From: an uncultured Chloroflexia bacterium
GTDB taxonomy: Bacteria; Chloroflexota; Limnocylindria; Limnocylindrales; CSP1-4
Assembly: GCA_963739885.1 (NCBI GenBank)
Contig: CAVUCC010000001.1
Coordinates: 206,516-270,515, forward strand
Direction of reading: 5' to 3'
DNA: 64,000 bases
Under the pieces are notes generated by a model. That model had not been told where the DNA came from. It ran no database searches and worked only from the letters and a program-made list of their open reading frames with translations. The position numbers and the translations under genes are program-made. Shown in pieces: positions 12,593 through 44,444 of the stretch; the stretch's first letter is position 1; the number at the start of each line of letters is the position of its first letter.

Positions 12593-12594
12593 CG

Positions 12595-14510: not shown

Positions 14511-14517
14511 CTCCCGG

Positions 14518-15390
14518 CTAGTACTGGGGCAGGCCGGCCGCGCCGCCTGCCACGTCGATCGGTACGGCGAGGCCGATCCCGACGAACACGTCTTCCTTGG
14601 TGGGGTTGATGAGCGCGGCCACGATGCCGATCACCCTGCCGTTGGCGTCGAGCAGGGGCCCGCCCGAGTTGCCGGGGTTGACGGCGGCATCCACCTGGAT
14701 CAGGCCGCTCAGGACCTGGCCGCTGTCGGGGAGCGTGAACGAGCGATCCAGGCCGGACACGATGCCAGAGCTCATCGACCCGTACAGCCCGAACGGGTTG
14801 CCGACCACGAATGCCTGGCTACCGACGCGGACGGATCTCGGGTCGCCGAGCACAGCCGGCTGCAGGACCGACGGCGGCTGATCCGGCTGGAGCACCGCGA
14901 TGTCGGAGTCCGGCTGGCGGCTGGCGATCGAGGCGGTCGATTGCGACCCGTCGGCAAACGTGACCTCGATGCCGGTGGCGCCGTCGACCACGTGCAGGCT
15001 GGTCAGGATCTCACCCGCGTCGTCGACGACGACGCCGCTGCCGAGCGATGCGTCGCCGGAGTCGGACCCACGCTGGGCGTGAACCAGCACCAGTGATGGC
15101 TGGATCTGCTCGTAGGCGACCGCGGACAGCGGTGGGGCGGGGGTCACGGAGGCGAGCGCGCTGGCGATTGCGTCGTTGACGTCGGCCCGGTCGAGCTGCG
15201 GCGGTCCGGGCACGAGGGTGTTGTAGCCAGCGATCGCGATCAGCGCCGCGGCCAAACCCGCGACGAACAGGCCGGCGCTCCGCGCGCTCGGGCGGCGCCG
15301 GCGCCGACGGCGAACGGGTGGCCCTGGGTGCAGCTCGGCAAGGCCCCACGGCCGGGTCGGGCCATCCGGTGGGATCTGAGGATTTGGCAT
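14518..15390 (-). CDS. trypsin-like serine protease (S1C/HtrA-like, no PDZ domain), membrane anchored
   Basis: N-terminal TM, catalytic His (TSLHVV), Asp (DIAVL) and Ser (GNSGGPLLD) motifs. Start at MPNPQIP (15390). Confidence 0.75.
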   Translation of the reverse strand: MPNPQIPPDGPTRPWGLAELHPGPPVRRRRRRRPSARSAGLFVAGLAAALIAIAGYNTLVPGPPQLDRADVNDAIASALASVTPAPPLSAVAYEQIQPSLVLVHAQRGSDSGDASLGSGVVVDDAGEILTSLHVVDGATGIEVTFADGSQSTASIASRQPDSDIAVLQPDQPPSVLQPAVLGDPRSVRVGSQAFVVGNPFGLYGSMSSGIVSGLDRSFTLPDSGQVLSGLIQVDAAVNPGNSGGPLLDANGRVIGIVAALINPTKEDVFVGIGLAVPIDVAGGAAGLPQY

Positions 15391-25982: not shown

Positions 25983-27527
25983 TCAGCGGTTGCCGGGGAA
26001 CACCAGGCTCAGGGTCGCCCGCTTGCCGGGCTCGGGCCAGCGGATGGTGACCTCCTTCTGGCGAGTGAAGAAGCGAAGGCCGTCCTCGCCGCGCAACGGC
26101 AGGTCTCCGAGCGCGGACTCCTTCGCGCCGCCGAAGCTGAGATAGCCGGCCGGGACGGGGATCGGCACGTTGACGCCGACCATCGGGACCTCTGACTCGA
26201 GCTGGAACCGCCGCGCGGCGCCGCCGTCGGTGGTGAAGATCGCGGTCCCGTTGGCGTACTGGTGGGAGTTCACGAGGTTGATGGCCTCGTCGTACGTGTC
26301 CACGCGGACCACGCCCAGCACCGGACCGAAGATCTCCTGGTTGTAGATGTCCATGGTCGGCTGCACGTGATCGAACAGGGACACGCCGAGGAAGAACCCG
26401 TCGGGGTTGTCGGGATGGACGAACGGGCGACCGTCGACCACCAGCTCGGCACCCTCCTCGACCCCACGGTCGATCCACTTGATCACCGACTCGCGGTGCT
26501 CGCGGGTGTAGATCGGGCCCATGTCCACGCCGGGCTCCATCCCGTCGCCGACCTTCAGGTTTGCGATCCGCTCGAGGATCATCGGGCGCAGCTTGTCGGC
26601 CACACCGCCCACGGCCACCAGCAGAGTCTGGGCCATGCACCGCTCACCGGCCGAGCCGTAGCCGGCCGCCACGGCACTGTCGGCCGCGAGGTCGAGGTCG
26701 GTATCGGGCAGCACGACCATCATGTTCTTGGCGCTGGTGAATGCGCCGACGCGCTTGCCGCGCTTGGTGCCCTCCTCGTAGACGTACCGGCCGACCTTGG
26801 TCGAGCCGACGAACTGGATCGCCTTGACATCGGGGTGCTCGACGAGGGCGGCGACCGCCTCGCGGCCGCCGTACACGACGTTGAGGACACCCTCCGGCAA
26901 CCCCGCCTCCGCCCACAGCTCGGCCTGGAGCTGGGTTGCGCCCGGGGTGTGCGACGAGGGCTTGAGGATCATGGTGTTGCCGGCCGCGAGCGCGATCGGC
27001 AGGATCCACATCGGGACCATGACCGGAAAGTTGAACGGCGTGATGGCCGCGGTGACACCCAGCGGCTGGCGCAGCGTCACGGCGTCCACGTTGGTGGCGA
27101 CGTTGGGCGTGTTCATGCCCGCGAGGTGGACCGGCAGGCCGCACGCGTACTCGACCGTCTCGATACCGCGGGTCACGCCGGCCAGCGCATCGGGGAACGT
27201 CTTGCCGTGGTCGCGGGTCACCAGCTCCGCAAGCTCCTTGCGGTGCTTCCAGGCAAGCTCGCGGAAGGCGAAGAAGATCTGGCTGCGGGCGATGAGCGGC
27301 ATGTCACGCCAGGCGGGGAACGCGGCCTTGGCGCTGGCGACCGCACGGTCGACCTCGGGCTGGCCGCCGCGCGGGACGCGCGCGATGACCTCGCCGGTCG
27401 CCGGGTTGTAGACCGGCCCGGCGTGCTCGGGGAGAACCTCGACGGGACGATTGTCGATCCAATGGGACAGAACCGGAACGGGCGCGGTCTGGGTCGCCTG
27501 TTCCTTCGGGCGGGACTCTGTGGTCAC
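25983..27527 (-). CDS. mmsA: CoA-acylating methylmalonate-semialdehyde dehydrogenase
   Basis: 514-aa aldehyde dehydrogenase family protein with motifs FTSAKNMMVVLPD, GERCMA and YANGTAIFT characteristic of MmsA. Confidence 0.85.
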   Translation of the reverse strand: MTTESRPKEQATQTAPVPVLSHWIDNRPVEVLPEHAGPVYNPATGEVIARVPRGGQPEVDRAVASAKAAFPAWRDMPLIARSQIFFAFRELAWKHRKELAELVTRDHGKTFPDALAGVTRGIETVEYACGLPVHLAGMNTPNVATNVDAVTLRQPLGVTAAITPFNFPVMVPMWILPIALAAGNTMILKPSSHTPGATQLQAELWAEAGLPEGVLNVVYGGREAVAALVEHPDVKAIQFVGSTKVGRYVYEEGTKRGKRVGAFTSAKNMMVVLPDTDLDLAADSAVAAGYGSAGERCMAQTLLVAVGGVADKLRPMILERIANLKVGDGMEPGVDMGPIYTREHRESVIKWIDRGVEEGAELVVDGRPFVHPDNPDGFFLGVSLFDHVQPTMDIYNQEIFGPVLGVVRVDTYDEAINLVNSHQYANGTAIFTTDGGAARRFQLESEVPMVGVNVPIPVPAGYLSFGGAKESALGDLPLRGEDGLRFFTRQKEVTIRWPEPGKRATLSLVFPGNR

Positions 27528-27789: not shown

Positions 27790-28917
27790 GTGGCCGACCT
27801 GTCCACCGTGTTCACGGGCATCCGGTTCGAGAACCCGTTCCTGCTCGCATCCGCGCCACCGACCGAGTCCGAGTCCAACATCATGCGGGCCTTCGAGGCC
27901 GGGTGGGGAGGGGTCGTCACCAAGACCATCGGCCTGCATCCCGTCGTCAACGTCGCCGGACCCAAGACCAAGTTCCTGCGCGCCGACGCTGGCGGCTCCC
28001 GGCTGTCGATGGCCAAGCGCCCCGACACGACCCTCATGGCGTCGTGGAACTGGGAGCTGATCTCCGACAAGCCGATGGACTGGTGGCTGCCGAAGCTGGC
28101 ATCGATCAAGCGCGTCTGGCCCAACCGCGTCCTCGTCGCCTCGATCATGGCCGGGTCGGGCACCGACAAGGAGCTCGACAACTGGCAGACGCTGGTCGAG
28201 GGCGTCCAGGACGCGGGCGTCGATGCGATCGAGCTCAACTTCTCGTGCCCGCACATGGACCGGATCGACATGGGCTCGAACGTAGGCAAGGACCCCGTCC
28301 TGTGCTCGGTGTCCACGCAGGCGGTCAAGGCCGTGGCAAGGGTCCCCGTATGGGTCAAGCTGACGCCGGCGACCGCGAACATCGTGGAGGAGGCCGAGGC
28401 CACGTTCCGCGGTGGTGCCGACGCCATCACCTCGTCCAACACCTTCCCGTCGCTGCCGCTGTTCGATCCGCTGACGCTCGAGCCCGAGGTCAACGTCGAC
28501 GGGATGGTCTCTGCCGGCGGGCTGGGCGGGCCGGCGATCCTGCTCCTATCACTGGCCAAGATGGCCGAGATGACGGAGGCGTTCCCGGATCGCGCCTTCT
28601 CGGGAATCGGCGGAGTCTCGACCTTCGAGCACGCGCTCAACTACTTCCTGCTGGGTTGCGGGACCGTACAGGTGGCCACGGCCGCAATGCTCGACCATGC
28701 CATCGGGCCGAACGTGATCCGCAGGCTGACCACGGGCCTGGAGGAGTTCCTCGACCGCAACGCCGATCGCGGTTGGACCTCGCTCGAGGACTTCCGCGGC
28801 ATCCGGCGCGGGCGCGTCGTCTCCCAGTCGTCGATCCGGCGCCCGGACGCGGCCGGCTACCACGGCGGCTACGAGGACGAGGCCGAGGGCTACGCGCCCG
28901 ATCCCGTCAAGGTCTGA
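27790..28917 (+). CDS. preA: dihydropyrimidine/dihydroorotate dehydrogenase-family flavoprotein (PreA-like catalytic domain, lacking the C-terminal 4Fe-4S domains)
   Basis: GTG start. FENPFLLASAPPT, NFSCPH and the DHODH-like TIM-barrel motifs (SSNTFPSLPLFD, GIGGVSTFEHALNYFLLG). No Cys-cluster tail. Confidence 0.75.
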   Translation: MADLSTVFTGIRFENPFLLASAPPTESESNIMRAFEAGWGGVVTKTIGLHPVVNVAGPKTKFLRADAGGSRLSMAKRPDTTLMASWNWELISDKPMDWWLPKLASIKRVWPNRVLVASIMAGSGTDKELDNWQTLVEGVQDAGVDAIELNFSCPHMDRIDMGSNVGKDPVLCSVSTQAVKAVARVPVWVKLTPATANIVEEAEATFRGGADAITSSNTFPSLPLFDPLTLEPEVNVDGMVSAGGLGGPAILLLSLAKMAEMTEAFPDRAFSGIGGVSTFEHALNYFLLGCGTVQVATAAMLDHAIGPNVIRRLTTGLEEFLDRNADRGWTSLEDFRGIRRGRVVSQSSIRRPDAAGYHGGYEDEAEGYAPDPVKV

Positions 28918-29490: not shown

Positions 29491-32400
29491 TCAGTTCCGG
29501 TGGATCGTCACCTCCCCCTGCACATCGCCCGACGCCTTGTAGATGGGCTCGTCTAGGTCTGGATCCGCGCCTGCCGCCCAGATCCTGATGATGAACCGGT
29601 CTGGCTGCGAGCCACCTCGCGTGTCGCCGTCCCTGGCATCGACGCGGAACGGGTAGTCGCCTGGTGCCCCGTCGATCGTCGCCAGCCCCTGGAACCGCGC
29701 CCAGTTCGAGTTGGTCACGACGAGCCAATCAAACCCACCCGCGGTCAGCTGGAAGCTCCCCACGTTGTAGTGGAAGGTCAGGTTGCCGCCCGGAACGGAA
29801 GACGACCCGTTCTTGTACTTGACGACGAACCCGAAGTTGGCGTGCGAGGTTCCGTCGATCCCGGGCAGCAGGTCACCTCCGTCGGAGGTGCTGCCGCCGG
29901 GCACGATCCAGCCACCGCCGGTCGCGAACCCACCACTCGGGTCGTAGACGACGACGTACCGGAAGGCTGCGCTCGCCGACTGGCCGCTTGGGTCGACCAC
30001 CTCAACCGAGGCGGTGTAGACGCCCGGTTGCGCATAGACGTGATCCCCGGTCGCGGCCGTCGTGCCCGATGCCGGGTCGATCTCGATCGACCCGGTGGAG
30101 GTCACACCGTCCCCCCAGTCGACGGTCACCACGTGGTCGTCGAGCGTCCCCGCATCCGCCACCGGTGCTTGCACGGTCGCCGTGGTGCCGACCGGCAGCG
30201 GCCCATCGGGACCGGTGGCCGGGCCCAGGACCGGACCCGGAACCCCGACGATCCACTCGCTCGCCTCGGAGGTGAGCACGACGAGCTGGATGTCGCCGTC
30301 GGGGAGCAGCGCTCGGTCGAACACGCAGGGATCGGGCGACGCCTGACCGGAGGCATCGTTGCAGTCGACGACCGCCACACCGTTGCGGAACACGACGACG
30401 GTCGACGGGTCGTCGCCCATGGGCACGGTGCTGGCATCAATGCGGAACAAGAGCTGCAGCGGGTCGGCCGCCGTCGCGGCCGGGGCAGAGATCGTGACCA
30501 CCTGGCCCAGGATGCCGTAGCCGTCCGGTGGCGGACCGCCGGTCCCGGTAGCGTCGATCGAGACCGTCCCGGCGACCGGGGTCGTGACGCCGGCGACGAC
30601 CGGGTCCGACGGGGTGGCGCCCGAGCCCGTGTCCGTAGTCATGGTCCCGCCGGCCGGCACGGAGCCCGTCGGGTTTGGCCCGCCCGGCTCGATCCTGAGC
30701 GCCACGTCGCGAGTGAAATCCGGCAGCGGGATCGTTAGCGTGCCGCCGCTGGCCGTCGCGACGAACGGCGCCTGCCACGTCCCGGCGCCATACGGATCGA
30801 ACACGCCGACCAGCCAGGTTCCGTCGCCGAAGCCCGACATCGCGATCGTCGCGCCCGAGATGACGCGACCGGCCAGGTCACCCGGTCTTGACCCCGTCCC
30901 GTAGGCATTCTGGGCGTCGCGGACCCACGCGTAGCCAACCGAGCCGTTGTCCAGCCCGAGCGCGATGACGGCGGCCGGGGCGCTGATCGTGGAGTCGTGG
31001 AGCCCGAGCGCCGCCGGGTCCTGTCCGGCGAAGAACGTCTGCAGGGCCGGGAAGACCTGCTCGTACACCGGGAATCCCGGCGCGGTGCGGTGCTCGGTCG
31101 GGTTGGAGAAGAGGTACTCACCCCACCACCACGACATCGCGCCTGAGCGGGACATCGCCGCCGCCCAGGCCGCATTGTGCAGGTGTGTCCCCTCCTCGAG
31201 ATGCTCTCGCAGGTCCTGGGAGAGGGTGGAGGTCGTGGGGTCGAAGTGGCGCTCGGGATCCGACGCCAGCCCAAACTCGCCCACGATCACCGGCTTGCCG
31301 TATGCGGCCTGCAGGTCGCCGACCTCCTGGCGGAGCCGCGTGTCCTGGGTGGCCGAGGCACCGTAGTCGTGCACCTGCACCAGGTTGATGTTGGGGTCGG
31401 TCCAGATGCCGTCGAGGGAGCTGTCGGGCGCCGCGCTGGTGGTGATCAGGTGGTGGTACGGATCGATGCTCTCGAGGTACGCGGCCATCTCCTGGTGCCA
31501 GGCGGCGATGGCGTCGCGCACGGCGGCGTTGTTGCCCGGATTGACCGCGTCGGTGCCCACGGACTGGACCTCGTTGAACAGCTCCCAGGCAAGGACGTTG
31601 CGGAACGCGCCGTAGCGGGCGACGAGGTAGCGCAGCCGCTGCTTGAACAGGCGCTTCGCCTCCGGATTGGTGAAGAAGTCGGTGGGCGTGGCCGCCGGCA
31701 CGGGGCCGCCGTGGGCAGTGCTGTAAGGGTTGTCGGCCCAGCGTCCATCCACGTAGGTGCTGAATTGGCCGTGGTCGTTGAGCACCAGCTGCACCTGGAG
31801 CCCGTGCTCGTCGGCGAGCTCGAGCGCCTGGTCGATGCGGAACGCCGAGACCTGCGAGTATTGGCCGACGCCCGTGTACAGCCCGGACCAGTGGTTGGTC
31901 GACCACTCGAGCGCGTCGCGATTGAAGTCGGTCATCCAGACCCGCGTCCAGTTCTCGCCGGCCGTCTCCATCGAGGCGAACAATGGGTCGAAGTAGTGAC
32001 CGCCGTCGGCGTCGGGATTGCCGTCCTGAAAGGCGACGTCGTTCCCCATCGGGACGTACGGCGTGCCGTCCTCGTACCGGAGCATCAGCGGGTCTGTCGG
32101 GTCCTCGCCCACCTCGCCATGTGTGCTGGGCGAGGTGGCATCGAAGCTGAGCGGGACGGAGACGACCGTCGCCACAGAGGGCGGGATCTTGTCCTCGGCG
32201 CGAAGGGTGTACGTGTACGTGCCCACCTCGTCTGGCGAGAACCGGACGCGCCAGACGCCAGGTCGCGGCGGGCTCATCGGCACCGGATCGTAGATCTCGC
32301 TGCTCCCCACCCCGGTGCCGGCCCGGACCGTGTAGTCGACCGTCCAGTAGGCCGGCACGCTGATCTGGGTACCGCTCGGAGCGGTGAACGTTGCGCTGAC

Positions 32401-34137
32401 GTCGATCCGGCGGGAATCGAAGACGTCGAGGTTGTAGTAGCGGCTCAGGTTGAACGTCTTCTCGAAGAGGCCGTACTTCTGCACGCTCGCGGCTGCTGGG
32501 ACCGAGGTGTCGATCGTGAGCGGCGTCACGTACTCGAAGTCGAACGCGGAGCCGGCGATCGGAGACGATGCGGTGAGTGTCTGGTCCCAGCAGACCGAGT
32601 CATGGAGGTACCAGTCGGTGGGGATCCCAACGACGCACGCGGTGTAGGTTGCGTCGAGGTCGAGCGGCGACAGCGACACGATCCCCGGATCGGAGTCCTG
32701 GTCGTTCGCGTCGCCGTCCGTCACGGTGAGCGAGTAGCCGTTGGTGCCGGTGACGCTGTAGGTCACGCCGTCGAGCGTGCCGCCCTGCACACGCAGCGCG
32801 GTCATCGAGAGGGTGCCGCTCGAGGGCGTCGGGCTCGGTCCCCCGCCACCGGAGGGCTGGGAGGTGATGGCGACGTCGCCGGCTTGGAGCGGGTCGCCGG
32901 GGAGGGTCTGCGCACCGAGGCAGCCGAACGGCTCGATCGTGTCGTACGCGTTGACCTCTACGGTGTCGCCGGCTCCCGCGAGGCCGCCGTCCACGAGGAA
33001 GATGGTGGCGTATCCGTAGCTGGTCCCGCCGTACGGCCAGTCGCCGCGCCCGATGAGCATCGCCGTCGAGCCCCGGATGTCGAGGCACACGACGTCGCCC
33101 GAAAGCGAGAAGCCCTGGCTCTCGCTGACCGAGAAGGTGCCGCTGACCGTGCCCGACTCATCACGCGTGGCGTCGACGTCGAGCGTCCGCGTGTACCCGG
33201 AGCCGAGGTCGGTCTGCGCACCGTCGACGACCACGTGGCCCGTGTCCGAGGTCCCGGTTCGGATCGTGATCTGGCCGTCGGCGATCGAGGTCTCGCCGGG
33301 ATCGGCGGCGCCGCAGTCGGGCGGCGCCATGTTGGTCGGACCATCGAACGCGATCGTGTCCGGGTTGCCGTCGAGGTCGCCGTCGGTCGCCCAGATCGTC
33401 ACGTACAGCGGGCCGTAGCCGACGTCGGGTGCGGCTCCGCCCAGCACGAACGAGGACCCATTGACCACGAGGCAGGTCACATCGCCGCTCGCGGAGCTCC
33501 CGAAGGGCGGGTAGATCGCGAACGTGCCCGAGATCGTCCCGCTGCCGTCGTCAACGGCGGCAAACCGGAACGATCCGAAGGAGCCCCCGAGGTTGACGTC
33601 ACCGTCGCCCACCACGCTGACCGGTGCTCCGCTCCCCGAGCCGCTCCCGATCGAGATCGAGATGTCGCCGCCGACGAGGGGCAGGACGCTGGAGCTCGGC
33701 GACCCGGCGCAGTCCGCGGGGCCGCCCGGGGTCGGTCCGTCCACTCCGATGGTGTCGGTCGTGGCCGTGAGGGCGCCGTCGGTCACGAACAGCTCGACGT
33801 ATTCCGTGCCGTAGGAGGCGTCGAATCCGCTGCCACCGATCACCGCGGTGTTGCCGCTCACCACAAGGCAGGTGACGGAACCGCTGAGCGGCGCGGGACC
33901 ACCAACGTCGAAGGTCCCCGACACGTTGCCGGCACCGTCGTCCGTCGCCGTGAACGAGAACGAGAGGTAGCCGTCGAGCATGCCTGTGCCAGGTCCGTTG
34001 GGCTCGACCTCGCCGGATCCGGTGATCGTGACGGGTGAGGCAGCCATCGCGTGCGGCGTGAGCGCCCAGGAGCCCAGCACCAGCGTGACCACGCCAAGGA
34101 GAATCCAGAGACCGCTCCACTGGGACGCCCGACGCAT
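29491..34137 (-). CDS. giant secreted multidomain protein: signal peptide, 3 copies of a novel ~130-aa repeat, DUF5060-like beta-sandwich, GH5-family TIM-barrel glycoside hydrolase, Ig-like region, PKD domain and a 4th repeat copy
   Basis: SD GGGAGG plus ATG at 34137. Signal peptide MRRASQWSGLWILLGVVTLVLGSWALTPHAMAA. GH5 catalytic motifs LAWELFNEVQ (acid/base) and PVIVGEFG (nucleophile). PKD motif VDWGDGVTSTG...HVYAQPGVYTASVEV. The repeats share ...DDG(A/S)G.(V/I)SGTF....G.V.CL.V.G... The 4.6-kb frame is uninterrupted. Confidence 0.85.
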   Translation of the reverse strand: MRRASQWSGLWILLGVVTLVLGSWALTPHAMAASPVTITGSGEVEPNGPGTGMLDGYLSFSFTATDDGAGNVSGTFDVGGPAPLSGSVTCLVVSGNTAVIGGSGFDASYGTEYVELFVTDGALTATTDTIGVDGPTPGGPADCAGSPSSSVLPLVGGDISISIGSGSGSGAPVSVVGDGDVNLGGSFGSFRFAAVDDGSGTISGTFAIYPPFGSSASGDVTCLVVNGSSFVLGGAAPDVGYGPLYVTIWATDGDLDGNPDTIAFDGPTNMAPPDCGAADPGETSIADGQITIRTGTSDTGHVVVDGAQTDLGSGYTRTLDVDATRDESGTVSGTFSVSESQGFSLSGDVVCLDIRGSTAMLIGRGDWPYGGTSYGYATIFLVDGGLAGAGDTVEVNAYDTIEPFGCLGAQTLPGDPLQAGDVAITSQPSGGGGPSPTPSSGTLSMTALRVQGGTLDGVTYSVTGTNGYSLTVTDGDANDQDSDPGIVSLSPLDLDATYTACVVGIPTDWYLHDSVCWDQTLTASSPIAGSAFDFEYVTPLTIDTSVPAAASVQKYGLFEKTFNLSRYYNLDVFDSRRIDVSATFTAPSGTQISVPAYWTVDYTVRAGTGVGSSEIYDPVPMSPPRPGVWRVRFSPDEVGTYTYTLRAEDKIPPSVATVVSVPLSFDATSPSTHGEVGEDPTDPLMLRYEDGTPYVPMGNDVAFQDGNPDADGGHYFDPLFASMETAGENWTRVWMTDFNRDALEWSTNHWSGLYTGVGQYSQVSAFRIDQALELADEHGLQVQLVLNDHGQFSTYVDGRWADNPYSTAHGGPVPAATPTDFFTNPEAKRLFKQRLRYLVARYGAFRNVLAWELFNEVQSVGTDAVNPGNNAAVRDAIAAWHQEMAAYLESIDPYHHLITTSAAPDSSLDGIWTDPNINLVQVHDYGASATQDTRLRQEVGDLQAAYGKPVIVGEFGLASDPERHFDPTTSTLSQDLREHLEEGTHLHNAAWAAAMSRSGAMSWWWGEYLFSNPTEHRTAPGFPVYEQVFPALQTFFAGQDPAALGLHDSTISAPAAVIALGLDNGSVGYAWVRDAQNAYGTGSRPGDLAGRVISGATIAMSGFGDGTWLVGVFDPYGAGTWQAPFVATASGGTLTIPLPDFTRDVALRIEPGGPNPTGSVPAGGTMTTDTGSGATPSDPVVAGVTTPVAGTVSIDATGTGGPPPDGYGILGQVVTISAPAATAADPLQLLFRIDASTVPMGDDPSTVVVFRNGVAVVDCNDASGQASPDPCVFDRALLPDGDIQLVVLTSEASEWIVGVPGPVLGPATGPDGPLPVGTTATVQAPVADAGTLDDHVVTVDWGDGVTSTGSIEIDPASGTTAATGDHVYAQPGVYTASVEVVDPSGQSASAAFRYVVVYDPSGGFATGGGWIVPGGSTSDGGDLLPGIDGTSHANFGFVVKYKNGSSSVPGGNLTFHYNVGSFQLTAGGFDWLVVTNSNWARFQGLATIDGAPGDYPFRVDARDGDTRGGSQPDRFIIRIWAAGADPDLDEPIYKASGDVQGEVTIHRN

Positions 34138-34599: not shown

Positions 34600-35988
34600 T
34601 CAGCGCAGGAACGCGCTGCGCTCCCGCTTGATGAACCTGCCGTCGCCCGCCTGGCCCAGCCACTGGCCGTTCTCGACCACGACTTTGCCGTGCGACATGA
34701 CCACGTCCGAGCCGCCCTGTACGACCTTGCCCTCGTAGCAGCTGTAGTCGACGTCCATGTGGTGCGTCTTGGCGCTGAGCGTGTGCTTGCGGTTCGGGTC
34801 GTACACCAGCAGGTCAGCGTCGTAGCCGACGGCAACGGCGCCCTTGTGGGTGAGGCCGAAGATCCTGGCCGCCGCGGTCGAGGTGATCTCGACGAACCGG
34901 TTGGGCGTGATCCGCCCGGCGACAACGCCGCCGTCGTGGATCAGGTCGACCCGCTCCTCGACCCCGGGGACCCCGTTCGGGATCTTGCGGAAGTCCCCCC
35001 GGCCCATCTCCTTCTGGCCGTGGAAGTCGAACGGGCAATGGTCGGTTCCAACCAGGGAGAGGTTGCCCCTGACCAGGCCCTTCCAGAGCTCCTCCTGGTG
35101 CCCGGCGCTGCGGTCCCGCATCGGCGGCGAGCACACGAACTTGGCACCCTCGAAACCGTTGCGCAGGTCGTCGAGCGACAGGAACAGGTACTGCGGGCAG
35201 GTCTCGGCGAACGCCGGCAGGCCGTCGTTCTGCGCGGCGCGGAGGACGTTGAGCGCCTCCTTCGCCGACATGTGGACGAAGTACACCGGCGCCTTGGCCG
35301 CCTGGGCAAGCCGGATCACCCGGTTGGTCGCCTCGCCCTCGAAGATGGAGTAGCGAGCCAGCCCGTGACCGATCGGGTCGGTGGTGCCCTGCTCGACGAG
35401 CTCGGCCGCGACGACATCGATCACGGGGCCGTTCTCGGCGTGCATCAGGACCATGCCGCCGTTCCTGGCGGTCTGCTTGAGCGCCTTGAAGATCGCGTCG
35501 TCGCCGCTCAGGAACACTCCCGGGTAGGCCGTGAACAGCTTGAACGTGGTGACGCCCTCGTCGACCAGCTCGTCCATCTCGGACAGCAGGTCGTCCCGCA
35601 TGTCGGACACGATCACGTGGAACGCGTAGTCGATGCAGGCCTTGCCGTCGGCCTTCTCGTGCCACGTGGCCAGACCGTCCCGGAACGACCCGCCACGCGG
35701 CTGGACCGCGAAGTCGATGATCGTCGTGGTGCCACCGAAGGCCGCAGCCCGGGTGCCGGTCTCGAAGGTGTCCTTGGCGAAGGTGCCGCCGAACGGCAGC
35801 TCCATGTGGGTGTGCGGGTCGATCCCGCCGGGGATCACCCACTTGCCGGTCGCGTCGATCGTGCGGTCGGCAGGGACGTCGAGCCTCTCGCCGATCATCG
35901 CGATCCGCTCGCCGTCGACGAGGACATCGCCCTTGGTGGTGGCGTCGGCGTTGACGATCGTTCCGCCCTTGAACAGCGTGCGCATCAT
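34600..35988 (-). CDS. hydA: dihydropyrimidinase (D-hydantoinase)
   Basis: GGIDPHTHM, a lysine-carboxylation region and VGTDHCPF motifs of the cyclic amidohydrolase family. 462 aa. Confidence 0.85.
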   Translation of the reverse strand: MMRTLFKGGTIVNADATTKGDVLVDGERIAMIGERLDVPADRTIDATGKWVIPGGIDPHTHMELPFGGTFAKDTFETGTRAAAFGGTTTIIDFAVQPRGGSFRDGLATWHEKADGKACIDYAFHVIVSDMRDDLLSEMDELVDEGVTTFKLFTAYPGVFLSGDDAIFKALKQTARNGGMVLMHAENGPVIDVVAAELVEQGTTDPIGHGLARYSIFEGEATNRVIRLAQAAKAPVYFVHMSAKEALNVLRAAQNDGLPAFAETCPQYLFLSLDDLRNGFEGAKFVCSPPMRDRSAGHQEELWKGLVRGNLSLVGTDHCPFDFHGQKEMGRGDFRKIPNGVPGVEERVDLIHDGGVVAGRITPNRFVEITSTAAARIFGLTHKGAVAVGYDADLLVYDPNRKHTLSAKTHHMDVDYSCYEGKVVQGGSDVVMSHGKVVVENGQWLGQAGDGRFIKRERSAFLR

Positions 35989-36056: not shown

Positions 36057-36908
36057 TCAGGGCTTGATGAGGTCACCGTACATCTCGGGCCGGCGATCGC
36101 GGTAGAACTGCCAGGTCTGGCGGACCTTGCTGACCAGGTCCAGATCGAGATCGCGCACGATGAGCTCCTCGTCGCGGGGGGAGCCCACGGCGCCCACGAA
36201 CTGGCCCAGCGGGTCGCAGAAGTAGCTCTGGCCGTAGAAGTCGTCGTCGCCGATGTCGGCCTCGATGCCAACCCGGTTGATGGTGCCCACGAAGTAGCCG
36301 TTGGCGAGCGAGTGGGACACCTGCTCCACCCGCCACAGGTACTCCGAGAGGCCCCGGCTGGTGGCGCTCGGGATGAGCACGATCTCGGCGCCGTTGAGAC
36401 CCAGCGCCCGGGCGCCTTCCGGGAAGTGGCGGTCGTAGCAGATGTACACGCCCACCTTGCCCACCGCGGTCTGGAACACCGGGTAGCCGAGGTTGCCCGG
36501 GCGGAAGTAGAACTTCTCCCAGAACCCGGCCACGTGCGGGATGTGGGTCTTGCGGTACTTGCCCAGGTAGGTGCCGTCGGCATCGATCACGGCCGCGGTG
36601 TTGTAGTAGATGCCCGAGGTCTGGCTGTCCTCCTCGTACATCGGGACCACCAGCACCATGCCGGTCTCTTTGGCCAGCGCACACATCCGGGCGGTCGTGG
36701 GCCCGTCGGGGATCAGCTCGGTGTAGCTGTAGTAGGTCTTGTCCTGGACCTGGCAGAAGTAGGGGCCGTAGAACAGCTCCTGGAACAGCATCAGCTGGGC
36801 GCCGGCCTTGGCCGCCTCGTGCGCATAGCCCTCGTGCTTCTGGATCATCGACTCCTTGTCGCCGGTCCAGGTCGCCTGCAGGAGCGCGCCACGGACGATA
36901 CGGGGCAT
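36057..36908 (-). CDS. beta-ureidopropionase / N-carbamoyl-amidohydrolase of the nitrilase (CN-hydrolase) superfamily
   Basis: Catalytic E-K-C triad context (LMLFQELF, RKTHIP, ICYDRHFPE). SD GGAGG upstream of the ATG at 36908. Confidence 0.8.
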   Translation of the reverse strand: MPRIVRGALLQATWTGDKESMIQKHEGYAHEAAKAGAQLMLFQELFYGPYFCQVQDKTYYSYTELIPDGPTTARMCALAKETGMVLVVPMYEEDSQTSGIYYNTAAVIDADGTYLGKYRKTHIPHVAGFWEKFYFRPGNLGYPVFQTAVGKVGVYICYDRHFPEGARALGLNGAEIVLIPSATSRGLSEYLWRVEQVSHSLANGYFVGTINRVGIEADIGDDDFYGQSYFCDPLGQFVGAVGSPRDEELIVRDLDLDLVSKVRQTWQFYRDRRPEMYGDLIKP

Positions 36909-37132
36909 CGGGGACCTCCACATCGGAAAAGCCGGGGACCATGCGGCCGCCCGCCAACTGGACCATAGACTCGTCCGAGAGGCACTGGGTCGCATGAGCC
37001 GGAGGAAACGAAGGTTGGGGAATCGCGGCCCTGCTACCGGGCGCGGTCGTCCGGGCCCCGTTGGGCGTGACAGTCCCGAATGGGGTTGATCTTCGGGACG
37101 TCAGGCCCGTCTGTCGGGGGCCAGCCCGATGC

Positions 37133-39205: not shown

Positions 39206-40285
39206 TCAGCAGATCCGGGGCAGCTGCTCCCCCACCAGCATGTCGACGATCCGCTCACTGCCGACGAGGGTGCGGATCGTGACCATGCCCGGATGGTCCG
39301 CCACCACCTCGCCGATCCGGGCCGCCTCGGCACCCTCGGGGAGCGCCCGCATCGCCGCCAGCACCGCCTCGGCAGACACGGCCGGCACGATCGCCACCAG
39401 CTTGCCTTCGTTGGCCACGTGGAGCGGGTCCAGGCCCAGGAACTCGCAAGCGGCGCGGACCGGCCCCGGGATCGGGATCGCCGGCTCGTCGAGCACCATG
39501 CCGACCCGCGAGGTCCCGGCGATCTCGTTGAGCGCCGACGACAGGCCGCCGCGGGTGGGGTCGCGAAGCACGTGGACGTCCGGCTCCACCGCCAGGATCG
39601 CCGAGACCAGCCCGTTGAGCGCCTGGGTGTCCGACGCGATCTCGACCTCGAACTCGAGACCCTCACGAACGCTCATGATGGCGACCCCGTGGAGCCCGAT
39701 GGGGCCCGACACGATGACCGCGTCGCCCGGCTGCGCCCGGTCCGCGGCGGGCGCGACGCCCTCGGGCACCACGCCGATGCCGGCGGTGTTGACGAACAGC
39801 CGGTCGGCCGCACCGCGTCCGACGACCTTGGTGTCCCCGGTGACGATCCGCGCGCCGGCCCGCGAGGCCGCCTCCGCCGCGGAGACCGTGATGAGCCGAA
39901 GCTCCTCGAGCGGCAGGCCCTCCTCGATCACGTAGGCAAGGCTGATCGCCAGCGGCTGCGCACCCATCATCGCGAGGTCATTGAGGGTGCCGTTGACCGC
40001 GAGCTCGCCGATGTCGCCACCCGGGAACCGGATCGGCGACACCACGAACGAGTCGGTGGTGAACGCAAGCCGGCCGGCCGGCACGTCGACTACGGCGGCA
40101 TCGTTGAGCGGACCGCCGGGCGAGGCCGTGCCGAGCGCAGGTGCCAGGACGTCGCGCATCAGGGCGTTCGACAGCTGGCCACCCGAGCCGTGGCCCAGGA
40201 TCACCCGCTGGTCCTCGGGGATGGGCGCCGGGCAGGCGATGCCCTCGGCGTCGATCGTGACCCGGGGCTCGTCTGACGTGGTCAT
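39206..40285 (-). CDS. hypE: [NiFe]-hydrogenase maturation protein HypE
   Basis: AIR-synthase-like fold with a HypE C-terminal ...PRIC motif. ATGA overlap with hypD. Confidence 0.9.
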
Positions 40286-41460
40286 CGCGCCGCCTCCTGG
40301 GGGGAGGATGCCACGGACGGGGACGAGGGCACGGGCACCAGCGGCAGGGCGCCGCTGAAGCCGCCCGTTGCGGCCAGGCCGCGGCCCGCGGCGTAGAACG
40401 CCGCGCACGTCCCCTCGGAGCTGACCATGGGCGCCCCCAGCGGCTGCTGCGGCGAGCACAGCGTCCCGTAGGCGGTGCATTCGAGCGGCGTCCGCTCGCC
40501 GGTGAGGATGGCGCCCGCGATGCAGGCCGGGTGCTCGTTGGTCCGGATGTCGCCCACCTCGAACCTGGTCTCCGCATCGAACCGCGCGTACTCGGGCCGC
40601 AACCGGTAGCCGGACATCGGGATCTCGCCCACGCCGCGCCACTTGCGGTGGCCGACCTCGAACACCTTGAGCACCTGCTGTTGCGCGGCGGGCACACCCT
40701 CGCGGGTCACCGCCCGCGTGTACTGGTTCTCGACCTCGAACCGCCCCTCCTCGAGCTGGCGGATCGCCATCAGGATGCCCTCGAGCAGGTCGAGCGGCTC
40801 GAACCCGGTGACCACGATCGGGACCCGGTACTTCGCGGCGATCGGCTCGTACTCGGTCCAGCCCATGATCGCGCAGACATGACCAGCGGCCAGGAACGAC
40901 TGGACCTGGTTGGTCGGCGAGTCGAGCAGGGCGGTCATCGCGGGTGGGACGAGGACGTGCGAGACGAGGACGCTGAAGTTGTCGATCCCGCGCCGGGCAG
41001 CCTCCGCCACGGCCATCGCGTTGGCGGGCGCGGTGGTCTCGAAGCCGACCGCGAAGAACACGACCTGGCGGTCGGGGTTGGCAAGCGCGATCTTCAGTGA
41101 ATCGAGCGGGCTGTACACGATCCGGACATCGGCGCCGCGGGCCTTGAGGGCAAGCAGGTCCGTGGTCGAGCCGGGCACGCGCAGCATGTCGCCGTAGCTG
41201 GTGAAGATGACGTCGGGCCGGGCCGCGATCGCCAGTGCCTTGTCCACCTGCTCGAGCGGCGTGACGCAGACGGGGCAGCCGGGACCGTGGATCATCCGGA
41301 CGCCCTCGGGCAGCGCCTCGTCGATCCCCTGCTTGACGATCGTGTGCGTCTGGCCGCCGCAGACCTCCATCATCGTCCACGGCCGGGTCGTGATCCGATG
41401 GATCTCGGTCAGCAATTTGCGGGCGAGCACGGGGTCGCGGTACTCGTCGAGGTACTTCAT
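40282..41460 (-). CDS. hypD: [NiFe]-hydrogenase maturation protein HypD
   Basis: [13 protein letters not shown] and FAVGFETT motifs. Confidence 0.9.
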
Positions 41461-41807
41461 GCGACCGGCTTTCCGGGCATCGACGGCGGCTGCGCCGGAT
41501 TGAAGGTGAGCGCCTCCGGTGTGTCGTCGCTCACGATCGCGGGCTGGTCCATCCCGGCACCCATCGTCATCAGCTCGGGCTCCATCACGCCCATGCTGTC
41601 GAGGATCTCGAGCGTCTTCAGCGCCTCGTCCTCGTCGACCTTCGAGATCGCGAACCCGACGTGGACGATGACGTAGTCACCGACCTCGATCTCGGGCAGG
41701 TACGCGAGGCAGGCGTCCTTGCGCACGCCACCGAAGTCGACCTTGCCCATCGCGAGCCCCGCCTCGTCGCGGATCTCGGTGACCTTGCCCGGAATGCCCA
41801 GACACAT
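41457..41807 (-). CDS. hypC: hydrogenase maturation chaperone HypC with an unusual ~30-aa Pro/Ala-rich C-terminal extension
   Basis: [10 protein letters not shown]-terminus (essential Cys2). 116 aa against the usual 75-90. Confidence 0.8.
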
Positions 41808-41811
41808 GCGA

Positions 41812-44274
41812 TCAGCCCTCCTGCCCCGCGGCCCGCGCCGCATTGAAGCCGGCGGGCAGGACCATCGTGGTCGCGCCTGCTGCCAGCCTGGCCGCGGCAA
41901 CCGCGGCCTGACCGTAGCTCACCCCGCCGTCGTTGACGGGAACCTGCCGGTTGATGAACGTCTCGAACCCGTCCCCGGCCAGCCGTCGGAGCATCGCCGA
42001 CGCCAGGCGCCGGTTCTGGAACACCCCGCCCGACAGGCAGACGATGCCCACGCCGGTGCGCGACCGGGCGTCCGCGAGCAGCTCGCGGGTCACCTCGATC
42101 ACGGTCTCCTGGAACGCTGCCGCCAGCAGGGCCACCGGCCTGTCGCTCGCGACGCCCTCGAGCAGGGCCGCCAGGGTGGGACGCGGGTCGTACACCTGCA
42201 GCCCGTCGCTGCGCCGGATCGCGAACGGAAGGGGGCCCGTCCGCCGCTCCCCGGCCGCGAGCTCGAGGTCGATGGCGGCCTGCGCCTCGTACTCGGCGAC
42301 GTCGCGGATCCCCAGCAACGCGGCTGCCGCGTCGAACAGGCGTCCCGCCGACGAGGCGATCGGTGCGTTGAGCCCGCGCGCGATCTGCTGTCGGACGAGC
42401 GCGACCTCGCGTGGATCGAGCCGCTCGAGGAGGGCCGGGGCAAGCGCCGGCAGATCGTCGCCGCTCCTGGATCCGGTCGCGCCGTCGTCGTCGAACGCCT
42501 CGGCCCCGAACAGGTAGCCCAGCGCCATCCGGTAGGGACGCCTCACCGCCAGCGCCCCGCCCGGCAGCGGCGCCCGGCCGAACCGTGCCAGCCGCGTGTA
42601 CCCGCGCAGATCGGCGAGCAGGATCTCGCCGCCCCACAACGTGCCGTCGTCGCCCATCCCCAGCCCGTCGTAGGCGACGCCCAGGAACGGTTCGGCCACC
42701 CCGTGCTCGGCCGCGCACGACGCCACGTGGGCATGGTGGTGCTGGACGGCGATCCGGCGATCGGCGGCGAACCGGTCGATCGCGTACTTGGTGGACAGGT
42801 ACTCCGGGTGGAGATCATGGACGACCACCTCAGGCTCCAGCGCCAGCAGCCGCGACAGGTGGGCGAGGCCGTCGGTGAACGCACGGTGGGTCGCCAGGTC
42901 CTCGAGATCGCCGTTGTGCGGGGCGACGTGGGCGCGAGCGCCCCGGGCGAGGGTGAACGTGTGCTTGAGCTCGGCGCCCACCGCGAGCAGCGGAACCGGC
43001 GTCGCGATCGGCAGCGGCATCGGCTCCGGGGCATAGCCGCGGGCGCGCCGCACGACCGACTCCCGGCGGGCCACCACGCGGGTGACCGAGTCGTCGTACC
43101 GGGCCCGGATCTCGCGATCGTGGGCAAGGAAGCCGTCCGCCAGGCCGCCCAGCCGGACCAGCGCGTCCTCGTCGTCGGTCGCCAGCGGCTCGTCCGTGAG
43201 GTTCCCGGAGGTGAGCACGATCGGACGCGCGACGGCCTCAAGCAGCAGGTGGTGGAGCGGCGTGTAGGGCAGGAACACGCCCAGCCGCCGGTTCCCCGCC
43301 GCGACGGACGGCGCCAGGGCGGGATGGCCATCACGCCGGGCTTCGAGCAGCACGATCGGCCGGGCGGGCCCGGTCAGCAGCACCTGCTCGAGGCGCCCGA
43401 TGCGGCATAGCGCCGCGGCCGCCTCCATGTCGCGGACCATGATCGCGAACGGCTTCGCCCAGCGGCGCTTCCGGTCACGCAGGCGGGCAACGGCGGCGTC
43501 GTCGGTGGCGTCGCAGGCGAGGTGGTAGCCGCCCAGACCCTTGATCGCGACGATCGCCCCGTCCGCCAGCGCGCCGACCACCCGCTCGAGGGCCGCCTCC
43601 TCGGCGGCGACCGGCGCCGGGGCGCCCGTGGGCCGCCAGGTCAGGCGGGGTCCACACGCGGGGCACGCAATGGGCTCGGCGTGGAACCGCCGGTCGGCGG
43701 GATTCCGGTACTCGGCTGCGCAGGCCGGGCACAGGGAGAACTGCCGCATCGTCGTCTGCTCGCGGTCGTACGGCAGCTGGTCGATGATCGTTGCCCGCGG
43801 CCCGCAGTTGGTGCAGTTGGTGAACGGATAGCGATACCGGCGGTCGGCGGGGTCGAACAGCTCCCGCAGGCAGTCGTCGCAGGTCGCGATGTCCGGCGGG
43901 AACAGCCGCTCGGTGGCGGCCGCGGCGACGCTCTCGTCGATGGCGAACGGGATCGGCAGCTCGTCGATCGGCAGCCCGTCCTCGCCCGGCGCAATCGCGG
44001 CAACGGTCACCCGGTCGACACGCGCGCGTGGCGGGGCATCGGTGCGCAGCCGACGCACGAAGACGTCGAGCGCGGCAGCCGGACCGGCGATCTCGATCTC
44101 GACCCGGCCCGCGGCATTTCTAATCCGGCCCGCGAGCGCGAGCTCGGTCGCCAGGCGCCACACGAACGGACGGAACCCGACACCCTGGACGACACCCTCG
44201 ACGATGACGGCCCGGGCGGCGTGCGCGGAGCTGGCGGCCGGGACGCACACGTCCGGGCGGACGGTTGCAGCCAT
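41812..44274 (-). CDS. hypF: carbamoyltransferase HypF
   Basis: One acylphosphatase domain, two CxxC...CxxC zinc fingers, a YrdC domain and a Kae1-like domain. 820 aa. Confidence 0.9.
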   Translation of the reverse strand: MAATVRPDVCVPAASSAHAARAVIVEGVVQGVGFRPFVWRLATELALAGRIRNAAGRVEIEIAGPAAALDVFVRRLRTDAPPRARVDRVTVAAIAPGEDGLPIDELPIPFAIDESVAAAATERLFPPDIATCDDCLRELFDPADRRYRYPFTNCTNCGPRATIIDQLPYDREQTTMRQFSLCPACAAEYRNPADRRFHAEPIACPACGPRLTWRPTGAPAPVAAEEAALERVVGALADGAIVAIKGLGGYHLACDATDDAAVARLRDRKRRWAKPFAIMVRDMEAAAALCRIGRLEQVLLTGPARPIVLLEARRDGHPALAPSVAAGNRRLGVFLPYTPLHHLLLEAVARPIVLTSGNLTDEPLATDDEDALVRLGGLADGFLAHDREIRARYDDSVTRVVARRESVVRRARGYAPEPMPLPIATPVPLLAVGAELKHTFTLARGARAHVAPHNGDLEDLATHRAFTDGLAHLSRLLALEPEVVVHDLHPEYLSTKYAIDRFAADRRIAVQHHHAHVASCAAEHGVAEPFLGVAYDGLGMGDDGTLWGGEILLADLRGYTRLARFGRAPLPGGALAVRRPYRMALGYLFGAEAFDDDGATGSRSGDDLPALAPALLERLDPREVALVRQQIARGLNAPIASSAGRLFDAAAALLGIRDVAEYEAQAAIDLELAAGERRTGPLPFAIRRSDGLQVYDPRPTLAALLEGVASDRPVALLAAAFQETVIEVTRELLADARSRTGVGIVCLSGGVFQNRRLASAMLRRLAGDGFETFINRQVPVNDGGVSYGQAAVAAARLAAGATTMVLPAGFNAARAAGQEG

Positions 44275-44444
44275 GGACCAAGCGTCTGCTGCCTGACCTC
44301 CTGCTCAACCTGCCGAACGGCCCTCATTCGACCCCCCTGACCGGACGGTCCCAGACGCCGCTTGGCCAGGCCATCCGGAGGGGGTTTCCCCGCTCGCCCA
44401 CGGCCCCGGCCTGACGAGCTCGGGGGCGGGCTCCGGGTCCGGGG

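Follow-up and report, generated by a model that had tools for sequence, protein, structure and literature searches.

The gene at 29491..34137 of the 64-kb window (the whole stretch of DNA analyzed here) raises the question of what a large secreted glycoside hydrolase does with the repeated domains that surround its catalytic core. A sequence-only reading of this DNA had proposed a novel module of ~130 aa, present in three tandem units after the signal peptide and in a fourth, more divergent copy at the C terminus. Here, we ask whether these segments are copies of one module, whether such a module has already been catalogued, and what it might contribute to the enzyme.

Domain architecture of the hydrolase

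The gene, like every feature described below, lies on the minus strand. Its open reading frame translates without interruption from an ATG at 34137 to the stop codon at 29491-29493, which is included in the gene coordinates, and encodes a secreted multidomain GH5-type glycoside hydrolase of 1548 aa. These boundaries match exactly the gene calls in a public cluster of seven variants at least 90% identical; one of them, P0286, has the same sequence as the window protein (1548 aa), and six further close variants occur in public assemblies. A genome scan returned only two Chloroflexia MAG loci, with 51% identity. Every motif string quoted in the sequence-only reading was found in the translation. 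The same reading had singled out this frame as uninterrupted unlike its neighbors, but the flanking genes (CN_hydrolase, dihydropyrimidinase, PreA-like DHO_dh, and aldehyde dehydrogenase) are all intact and equal in length to those in a second population. The gene is located within a pyrimidine-catabolism cluster, a position that offers no functional hint.

It is very likely that the protein is composed, from N to C terminus, of a signal peptide, three beta-barrel modules (A-A-B), a linker, domain X, DUF5060, a GH5-type barrel, domain Y, a PKD domain, and a post-COAP-1 domain. The signal peptide is predicted for residues 1 to 32 (34042..34137) from a basic n-region, a hydrophobic core, and an A-x-A site in the sequence MRRASQW...TPHAMA, followed by AS. 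All ten cysteines of the protein are paired within domains.

The catalytic core consists of a DUF5060 Ig-like domain (residues 552 to 646; 32200..32484) and a GH5-type (beta/alpha)8 catalytic domain (residues ~700 to 1012; 31102..32040), which both pass the Pfam gathering score (PF16586, 42.4 bits with a cut-off of 27.2; PF00150, 43.8 bits with a cut-off of 23.5). Residues 551 to 1012 align to chain residues 21 to 439 of PDB 9gmj with an E value of 6.5e-44 and with NEV and GEFG conserved. The acid/base glutamate is E856 (NEV at 31570-31572, in LFNEV) and the nucleophile is E954 (GEFG at 31276-31278, in VGEFG), and their aligned counterparts in 9gmj lie in WNEV and VGEFG, respectively; in 9gpc, a variant from the same depositors, the NEV glutamate is replaced by Gln (NQV). 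The earlier description of a DUF5060-like domain plus a GH5-like barrel with NEV/GEFG motifs is thereby borne out, including the presence of both catalytic residues. The solved protein (9gmj/9gpc, DUF5060 domain-containing protein, 568 aa) has the DUF5060 domain and GH5-type barrel in common with the window protein, while its deposited name refers to the DUF5060 domain only; as the alignment starts at chain residue 21 with DUF5060, it has no space for N-terminal repeats. Literature searches on DUF5060 and the 9gmj-series PDB codes returned no relevant paper. Pointers to the substrate consist of similarity, namely, the precomputed PF26410 (GH5_mannosidase) annotation of P0276, the near-identical representative of the cluster, and the resemblance of the core to the mannanases 4awe and 9m20, and should be taken as hints. 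Enzymes of clan GH-A, family GH5, use a retaining double-displacement mechanism, and this is the way in which the present core is predicted to break down a beta-mannan-like glycan.

Between the repeats and the core lie a Gly/Pro/Ser linker (PSGGGGPSPTPSSG; residues 428 to 441; 32815..32856), read from the sequence, and domain X (residues 442 to 550; 32488..32814; Cys pair 501/516), which has no Pfam or NCBIfam match and is conserved in P0126. The barrel is followed by a segment with no family match and boundaries set by eye (residues 1016 to 1135; 30733..31092) and by domain Y (residues 1150 to 1296; 30250..30690; Cys pair 1259/1271), which likewise has no Pfam or NCBIfam match and also follows the repeats in P0003, P0124, and P0126. 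The PKD domain expected after the core is very probably present (residues 1309 to 1395; 29953..30213): PF00801 scores 23.2 bits (cut-off, 23.5) and PF18911 21.5 bits (cut-off, 27) in this region, but the equivalent region of P0124 reaches 40.7 bits, and the homologue profile matches the ColH PKD structures with an E value of 1.4e-7.

An uncatalogued family of N-terminal repeats

The three tandem units proposed for the N terminus are real and far above chance. R1 (residues 33 to 165; 33643..34041), R2 (residues 166 to 300; 33238..33642), and R3 (residues 301 to 427; 32857..33237) are supported by BLASTP and a family HMM, and R1 additionally by an AlphaFold model. Pairwise BLASTP identities are 41% for R1-R2 (E value of 3e-25), 36% for R1-R3 (1e-13), and 40% for R2-R3 (1e-12), and the family HMM recognizes the units with E values of 4e-28 to 2e-34. 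The R1 model (pLDDT of 88.5) contains eight strands, which agrees with the beta-rich character anticipated earlier. Each unit was also said to hold a conserved Cys; the N-terminal units in fact hold two near-invariant ones each (90/143, 222/275, and 351/406), which probably form a disulfide, whereas the C-terminal domain has none. When repeats of other proteins were included in the comparison, R3 showed 45 to 57% identity to the final repeats of P0124, P0125, P0126, P0128, and P0132 but only 31 to 34% identity to R1 and R2. Because R3 is thus closer to the last repeats of other proteins than to its own neighbors, the three units represent, as judged by sequence comparison, two subtypes in the order A-A-B, and these subtypes are separately conserved across proteins. 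No further copy of either the repeat or the C-terminal module was seen elsewhere in the window.

Assignment of the repeats to an established CBM or PKD/Ig family would have contradicted their proposed novelty, but R1 to R3 found no match in Pfam, the library that carries the curated CBM and Ig/PKD families, at an E value of ≤10, and none in NCBIfam; nor did ten stand-alone family members match either library. The NF041523 (post_COAP_1) HMM did not detect R1, R2, or R3 even at an E value of ≤10. Likewise, the repeats have no PDB match by sequence, and Foldseek searches with the repeat model retrieved nothing below an E value of 0.1 from the PDB and nothing significant among viral structures (BFVD). 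Taken together, these results strongly support that the N-terminal modules constitute an uncatalogued family of extracellular domains of ~130 aa.

This family is far larger than the single protein. While a word-index search, which returned only three proteins, had suggested extreme rarity, an exhaustive profile search overturned this picture with 529 cluster representatives at an E value of ≤1e-3 (45 at ≤1e-10), all of them unnamed and metagenomic. The majority of the family are stand-alone proteins of 150 to 190 aa with N-terminal hydrophobic leaders; such a leader is present in 43 of 48 stand-alone members, and 7 carry a lipobox-like motif. Across 99 units, the positions equivalent to C90, D120, D128, and C143 of R1 are 98 to 99% conserved, and the family signature is otherwise made up mostly of Gly, Asp, Cys, and hydrophobic residues. 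Profile-search hits with matches over multiple stretches, checked on P0142, were rejected as family members. P0142 is an FG-GAP_2 (PF14312) propeller whose blades match repeat profile positions 42 to 78 (SG.V.CL.V.GN.A..GG) in 21 stretches; the likeness concerns this ~37-residue hairpin motif only, and propeller proteins lack the whole 130-aa module.

The position of the module varies: it is N-terminal in the window protein, internal in P0277, found without a glycoside hydrolase domain in P0124 and P0278, and also found alone, with two, three, or four copies among orthologues. The module is thus shuffled as a unit. P0126, P0132, P0135, P0140, and P0277 combine repeats with DUF5060 or GH5 in one protein, and at a further locus (L006) the repeats adjoin the gene for an 1844-aa DUF5060/GH5 protein; other identifiable partner domains are AbfB, NosD/beta-helix, fn3, PKD, and DUF11. 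The majority of members, however, are stand-alone or have no recognizable carbohydrate-active partner. No glycan-utilization genes were found in the genomic contexts of P0124, P0278, and P0186, and besides the DUF5060/GH5 adjacency at L006, the contexts of the relatives gave no functional clue.

The C-terminal domain and its relation to the repeats

The C-terminal domain (residues 1396 to 1548; 29494..29952) had been read as a fourth copy of the novel module. The sequence evidence assigns it instead to post-COAP-1 (NF041523), a named and widespread NCBIfam family. NF041523 matches the isolated domain over 97 of 115 model positions (E value of 7.4e-7; 29.6 bits, or 19.3 bits in the whole-protein search, both under the curated cut-off of 40 bits), and the domain is 58% identical to P0027, a post-COAP-1 domain-containing protein from Rhabdothermincola salaria, at 99% coverage (E value of 2.4e-44). 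Among its 127 homologues in the protein collection, the few with an organism name come from Chloroflexota, Phycisphaerales, Desulfobacterales, Alphaproteobacteria, and one actinobacterium. The family usually follows a PKD domain and sits at the extreme C terminus in essentially all full-length matches, terminating unrelated large proteins: GH5 enzymes, the GH2 protein P0281 (again with the PKD plus post-COAP-1 cassette), and adhesin-like proteins with cadherin, Big, or SdrD domains. A literature search on post-COAP-1 returned no relevant paper. Of the novelty proposed for all four segments, then, only that of the three repeats stands.

This leaves the question of whether repeats and C-terminal domain are related at all. 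BLAST and HMM-to-sequence searches between them found nothing, and aligning the tandem repeats directly to the C-domain profile gives a weak signal (hhalign probability of 21 to 52%; score of 26 to 31). The connection appears through the stand-alone members, which match the tandem repeats with 99.7% probability and the C-domain family with 92% probability (E value of 5.9e-7; score of 45.5 over 126 columns), compared to control scores of 15.8 for reversed profiles, at most 13.8 for shuffled columns, and at most 22.8 for shuffled blocks. Three stand-alone members are also weak matches of the post_COAP_1 HMM (P0162, 4e-4; P0215, 1.5e-3; P0183, 0.03). The AlphaFold models of the two domains, built from separate alignments with a pLDDT of ~88 each (88.2 for the C-terminal domain), have the same order of eight strands with a short helix between strands 6 and 7, and in the hhalign register each secondary-structure element of the repeat maps to its C-domain counterpart. 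Both families have in common a near-invariant Asp...Asp pair in the region from strand 6 to strand 7, at the short helix. Both models, moreover, pick up the same weak PDB matches, all small meander barrels (2fwv, 8ah9, 6s8v, and 8an6). The models strongly support predicted eight-stranded antiparallel beta-barrel or sandwich folds for both domains, and given the stand-alone intermediates and the agreement in secondary structure, we consider it likely that the repeat family is a divergent branch of a superfamily that includes post-COAP-1. The idea of a divergent fourth copy thus survives at the superfamily level, by profile-profile comparison and predicted structure. The repeats differ from the named family in their conserved Cys pair, which the latter lacks, and in occurring in tandem at N-terminal or internal positions rather than singly at the extreme C terminus.

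Possible roles of the modules

An extracellular accessory role for the modules is suggested by the leader peptide of the window protein, the within-domain pairing of cysteines, the leaders on stand-alone members, and the shuffling of the module. A link to carbohydrates is suggested by the DUF5060/GH5 fusions, the adjacency at L006, AbfB and other partners, and the GH2 protein P0281. We therefore regard the repeats and the C-terminal domain as probable accessory binding modules, a modest rather than surprising finding. That they are specifically binding or targeting domains has, in our estimation, a chance close to but not above even, and the complete explanation that joins the architecture, the superfamily link, and this role stands at even chances. 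The modules would be non-catalytic and would tether the catalytic core to a polymeric surface, most likely the polysaccharide on which it acts, with the cell envelope as the alternative; avidity might be gained from tandem copies, and the Asp pair might be a metal or ligand site. The same role is known from GH5 enzymes with appended CBMs, such as CBM3 and CBM11 on PcGH5 (PMC12099637). These resemble the present case in their non-catalytic beta modules, sometimes in tandem, their Gly/Pro/Ser linkers, and their secreted GH5 core, but the repeats match no CBM-containing Pfam model and no solved structure, by either sequence or fold. It is tempting to speculate that the repeats and post-COAP-1 found a new CBM superfamily with a barrel fold not in the PDB and a Ca2+ or sugar site at the Asp pair, targeting DUF5060/GH5 (mannan-type) and other glycoside hydrolases, although we consider this unlikely. 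Should the modules prove to bind glycans, a new CBM family would be defined, and the named but uncharacterized post-COAP-1, found at the end of many large secreted proteins from several phyla, would acquire a function; annotation of environmental CAZymes would improve, and enzyme engineering would gain a new targeting tag. As it stands, the repeat is one more uncharacterized accessory domain on a large secreted hydrolase, a common situation, and is useful for family curation.

Alternatively, the modules could be passive structural spacers with no ligand of their own, which make up a stiff stalk holding the catalytic domain away from the cell, like many fn3, PKD, or Big domains. The co-occurrence with the classic spacer domains fn3, PKD, and DUF11 and the variable copy number among orthologues are consistent with this, as is the family signature, which shows no obvious counterpart of the conserved, exposed aromatic platforms of CBMs. 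However, the strong conservation of the Asp pair and the persistence of the family as stand-alone secreted proteins point to the domain having a function of its own, and the separate conservation of subtypes A and B likewise speaks against spacers, making this explanation rather improbable.

Equally doubtful is a role in cell-surface retention or sorting, in which large secreted proteins would be fixed to the envelope of the producing cell by the PKD plus post-COAP-1 cassette, perhaps together with the repeats, the modules recognizing the cell's own wall polymers instead of the substrate. This would fit the terminal position of post-COAP-1 on otherwise unrelated large proteins and the retention of repeats, domain Y, PKD, and C-domain in the scaffold proteins P0124 and P0278, which have no glycoside hydrolase domain. 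Yet the repeats are N-terminal or internal, and the named homologues span Chloroflexota, Phycisphaerales, Desulfobacterales, and Alphaproteobacteria, lineages with differing cell envelopes, so that a single envelope receptor is unlikely.

Compared with binding or targeting of a polymer, a calycin-like function, with the barrel interior housing a small ligand of hydrophobic or cofactor-like nature as in lipocalins, avidins, nitrobindins, and YceI proteins, is very unlikely: although the family includes many small secreted proteins or lipoproteins that stand alone, and the sole fold neighbors of both models are barrels of eight consecutive antiparallel strands (Rv0813, anticalin, agroavidin, nitrobindin, TT1927b, and de novo barrels), all these matches are insignificant (E value of >0.1; TM score of 0.2 to 0.46), come with no sequence relationship, and are no evidence of membership, while the many conserved aromatic and hydrophobic residues of the C-domain family suggest a filled core and tandem arrays on glycoside hydrolases are atypical of calycins.

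The hydrolase gene and its catalytic core

The gene for the secreted GH5-type hydrolase runs on the minus strand from an ATG at window position 34137 to a stop codon at 29491-29493 and translates into 1548 amino acids; the in-frame sequence upstream of the ATG, up to 34521, is Arg rich and unlike protein. Seven variants at least 90% identical occur in public assemblies, one of them (P0286, on a 300,682-bp NCBI/ENA contig) identical to the window protein and the others differing at 3 to 9 residues. Since all seven are called at exactly 1548 amino acids, the gene is intact and maintained in several populations. Codon 18 (window 34084-34086), Thr here, is Met in five of the seven variants, which accounts for an internal start call on JGI contig L004. 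Residues 1 to 32 look like a signal peptide (RR, hydrophobic core, AMA/A), and all ten cysteines lie in pairs within domains (90/143, 222/275, 351/406, 501/516, and 1259/1271), which fits an extracellular protein.

The sequence-only reading had proposed a DUF5060 plus GH5 core with NEV/GEFG motifs, and this assignment holds. Both Pfam scores exceed their cutoffs, at 42.4 bits for DUF5060 (residues 552-646) and 43.8 bits for Cellulase/GH5 (residues 723-960), and residues 551-1012 align to PDB 9gmj (“DUF5060 domain-containing protein”; E value, 6.5e-44), with LFNEV and VGEFG of the hydrolase facing FWNEV and VGEFG. Because both motifs align and the 9gpc variant carries Gln in place of the NEV Glu, E856 and E954 are the predicted catalytic residues. 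Weaker PDB matches of the core are the beta-mannanases 4awe and 9m20, and PF26410 (“GH5_mannosidase”) is precomputed on P0276, a near-identical cluster representative, and on relatives; from these matches, a substrate of the beta-mannan type is a reasonable guess. Domains X (residues 442-550; window 32488-32814) and Y (residues 1150-1296; window 30250-30690), as well as segment 1016-1135, matched no Pfam or NCBIfam family. X and Y hold one Cys pair apiece, and Y accompanies repeats in the related proteins P0003, P0124, and P0126.

A repeat family at the N terminus

The tandem N-terminal units proposed from the sequence, R1 (residues 33-165), R2 (166-300), and R3 (301-427), are genuine: BLAST pairs R1 with R2 at 41% identity (E value, 3e-25), R1 with R3 at 36% (1e-13), and R2 with R3 at 40% (1e-12). 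With identities of 31 to 43%, the duplications are old. R1 and R2 (subtype A) cluster with the first repeats of relatives, whereas R3 (subtype B) shares 45 to 57% identity with the last repeats of P0124, P0125, P0126, P0128, and P0132, against 31 to 34% with R1 and R2 in this comparison across relatives. The order is A-A-B in the window protein, A-B in P0126 and P0001, and A-B-A-B in P0124.

At E values up to 10, the three units had no match in Pfam or NCBIfam except a chance-level one to Pfam DUF6758 (0.29); neither the repeat profile against PDB sequences (best E value, about 1) nor the repeat model against PDB by Foldseek (0.18) yielded a match. The novelty claimed for the N-terminal module is thus borne out to the extent that none of the three databases covers this family.

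A word-index search with three homologues had suggested extreme rarity, an impression overturned once 1.84 billion cluster representatives were searched exhaustively with an HMM (529 representatives at E values of ≤1e-3, 45 at ≤1e-10, and 15 at ≤1e-30). Among the matches listed, 83 proteins hold a full-length unit, with one copy in 71, two in 10, three in 1, and four in 1; 48 of these proteins are at most 230 amino acids long, 43 with a hydrophobic leader and 7 with a lipobox-like motif. Every member checked is of metagenomic or MAG origin and either has no name or is called “hypothetical protein”, and no Pfam domain was found in ten stand-alone members, small proteins of a single unit. The nearest genome loci to the window protein in a genome scan, at 51% identity, belong to two Chloroflexia MAGs. 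Across 99 units, C90, D120, D128, and C143 are conserved at 98 to 99% and G70, G74, G95, and G157 at more than 90%. P0142, with 21 matching stretches, was rejected as a member, being an FG-GAP_2 propeller that matches profile positions 42-78 only. The central hairpin SG.V.CL.V.GN.A..GG (in R1, window about 33790-33900) matches the blades of FG-GAP_2 propellers, with as many as about 20 matches in one protein, as confirmed for P0142; P0141 and P0150, which match in multiple stretches too, are putative further cases. The likeness to the blades may reflect a common ancestral hairpin or convergence.

Probable kinship between the repeats and the C-terminal domain

The C-terminal domain (residues 1396-1548) had been read as a fourth copy of the novel module. 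It is, however, an already known, named domain of uncharacterized function, since it matches NCBIfam post_COAP_1 (NF041523; E value, 7.4e-7; 29.6 bits, below the curated cutoff of 40) and is 58% identical, at 99% coverage, to P0027, which NCBI names “post-COAP-1 domain-containing protein”. We found no paper on post-COAP-1. The domain has 127 homologues, further ones lying in Chloroflexota, Phycisphaerales, Desulfobacterales, and Alphaproteobacteria. Its typical place is the extreme C terminus, straight after a PKD domain, and this cassette also closes the GH2 protein P0281 and the adhesin-like P0282 and P0283.

What stands of the fourth-copy claim is a probable distant relationship. BLAST and HMM-to-sequence searches between the repeats and the C-terminal domain returned nothing, and hhalign of the two alignments gave a co-linear, full-length match at 14 to 52% probability (score, 21 to 31). 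The tandem repeats, in turn, match weaker, mostly stand-alone members at 99.7% (E value, 3.5e-27), and these match the C-domain family at 92% (E value, 5.9e-7; score, 45.5; 126 columns), pooled units reaching 86%; null scores were 15.8 for the reversed C-domain alignment and, over 30 shuffles each, at most 13.8 with columns and at most 22.8 with blocks shuffled. The post_COAP_1 HMM weakly matches the stand-alone members P0162 (4e-4), P0215 (1.5e-3), and P0183 (0.03). At the level of sequence, direct evidence for kinship is weak and transitive evidence good.

The AlphaFold2 models of R1 (8-sequence alignment; pLDDT, 88.5; pTM, 0.82) and of the C-terminal domain (49 sequences; 88.2 and 0.84) both contain eight strands in succession and, between the sixth and the seventh, one short helix, and the hhalign register pairs every secondary-structure element of R1 with its counterpart. 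Both models have the small meander barrels 2fwv, 8ah9, 6s8v, and 8an6 as weak PDB neighbors, which together with the secondary structure agrees with a same predicted fold. Shared sequence features are an F.F strand, the L.V.GN.A hairpin, a D.G....D motif, and a terminal G.I.I strand, but the Cys pair of the repeats is missing in the C-terminal domain, where the first Cys is replaced by Trp. Repeats and C-terminal domain thus probably form two families of one superfamily, and linking the repeats to post-COAP-1 adds a small insight that is new.

Possible role and genomic surroundings

The distribution of the repeat module is that of an autonomous cassette. In the window protein it is N-terminal, in P0277 it lies internally as four units flanked by two catalytic regions, and often it stands alone; P0124 and P0278 lack a GH domain and form a scaffold of four units, Y, PKD, and C-domain. 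Its identifiable partners are carbohydrate-active or Ig-like, with DUF5060 or GH5 in P0126, P0132, P0135, P0140, and P0277 and AbfB, NosD/beta-helix, fn3, PKD, or DUF11 elsewhere; at locus L006, an 1844-amino-acid DUF5060/GH5 gene adjoins a repeat-only protein. Because the module is a cassette with such partners, we favor putative noncatalytic binding or targeting modules, a reading that, substrate side and envelope side taken together, has close to an even chance. Genomic contexts of GH-less and stand-alone members were uninformative on function, and the rival readings are that the repeats are envelope-retention devices, small-ligand barrels, or passive spacers. As binding or targeting modules, the repeats could use the Asp pair as a candidate metal or ligand site, and tandem copies would provide avidity. 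To find an uncharacterized accessory beta module attached to a large secreted glycoside hydrolase is nothing out of the ordinary.

P0124 (L003 8001-10916) and P0278 (L010 8001-10934) are paralogues, 55 to 58% identical to matching parts of the window protein, in a conserved context, with lysine biosynthesis genes (dapB, dapA, and lysA-like) to one side and a copper P-type ATPase to the other. At L005 (7789-14279), from a long-read assembly, a single giant gene seems to have been split by frameshifts into three successive, overlapping ORFs (905, 750, and 531 amino acids); the first carries repeats and DUF5060/GH5 and the second an fn3 domain, with repeats in its cluster members P0129 and P0273.

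The hydrolase gene had also been contrasted with interrupted neighbors, a contrast that fails because the flanking genes are intact. One flank has a dihydropyrimidinase (34600-35988) and a beta-ureidopropionase-like CN_hydrolase (36057-36995), the other a PreA-like DHO_dh (27790-28917) and an aldehyde dehydrogenase (25983-27527). Together they look like a reductive pyrimidine catabolism cluster, with identical gene order in a second population (L008). Nothing evident ties this cluster functionally to the glycoside hydrolase wedged inside it. Elsewhere in the window (11579-14630), a 661-amino-acid stop-to-stop ORF comes after a MoxR AAA gene. Besides a VWA domain, this ORF contains DUF58 in its first half only (profile positions 1-110 of 216), and either a fusion or a frameshift within a MoxR-DUF58-VWA operon may account for it. 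At 40282-44304, hypD and hypF for hydrogenase maturation are apparently intact.
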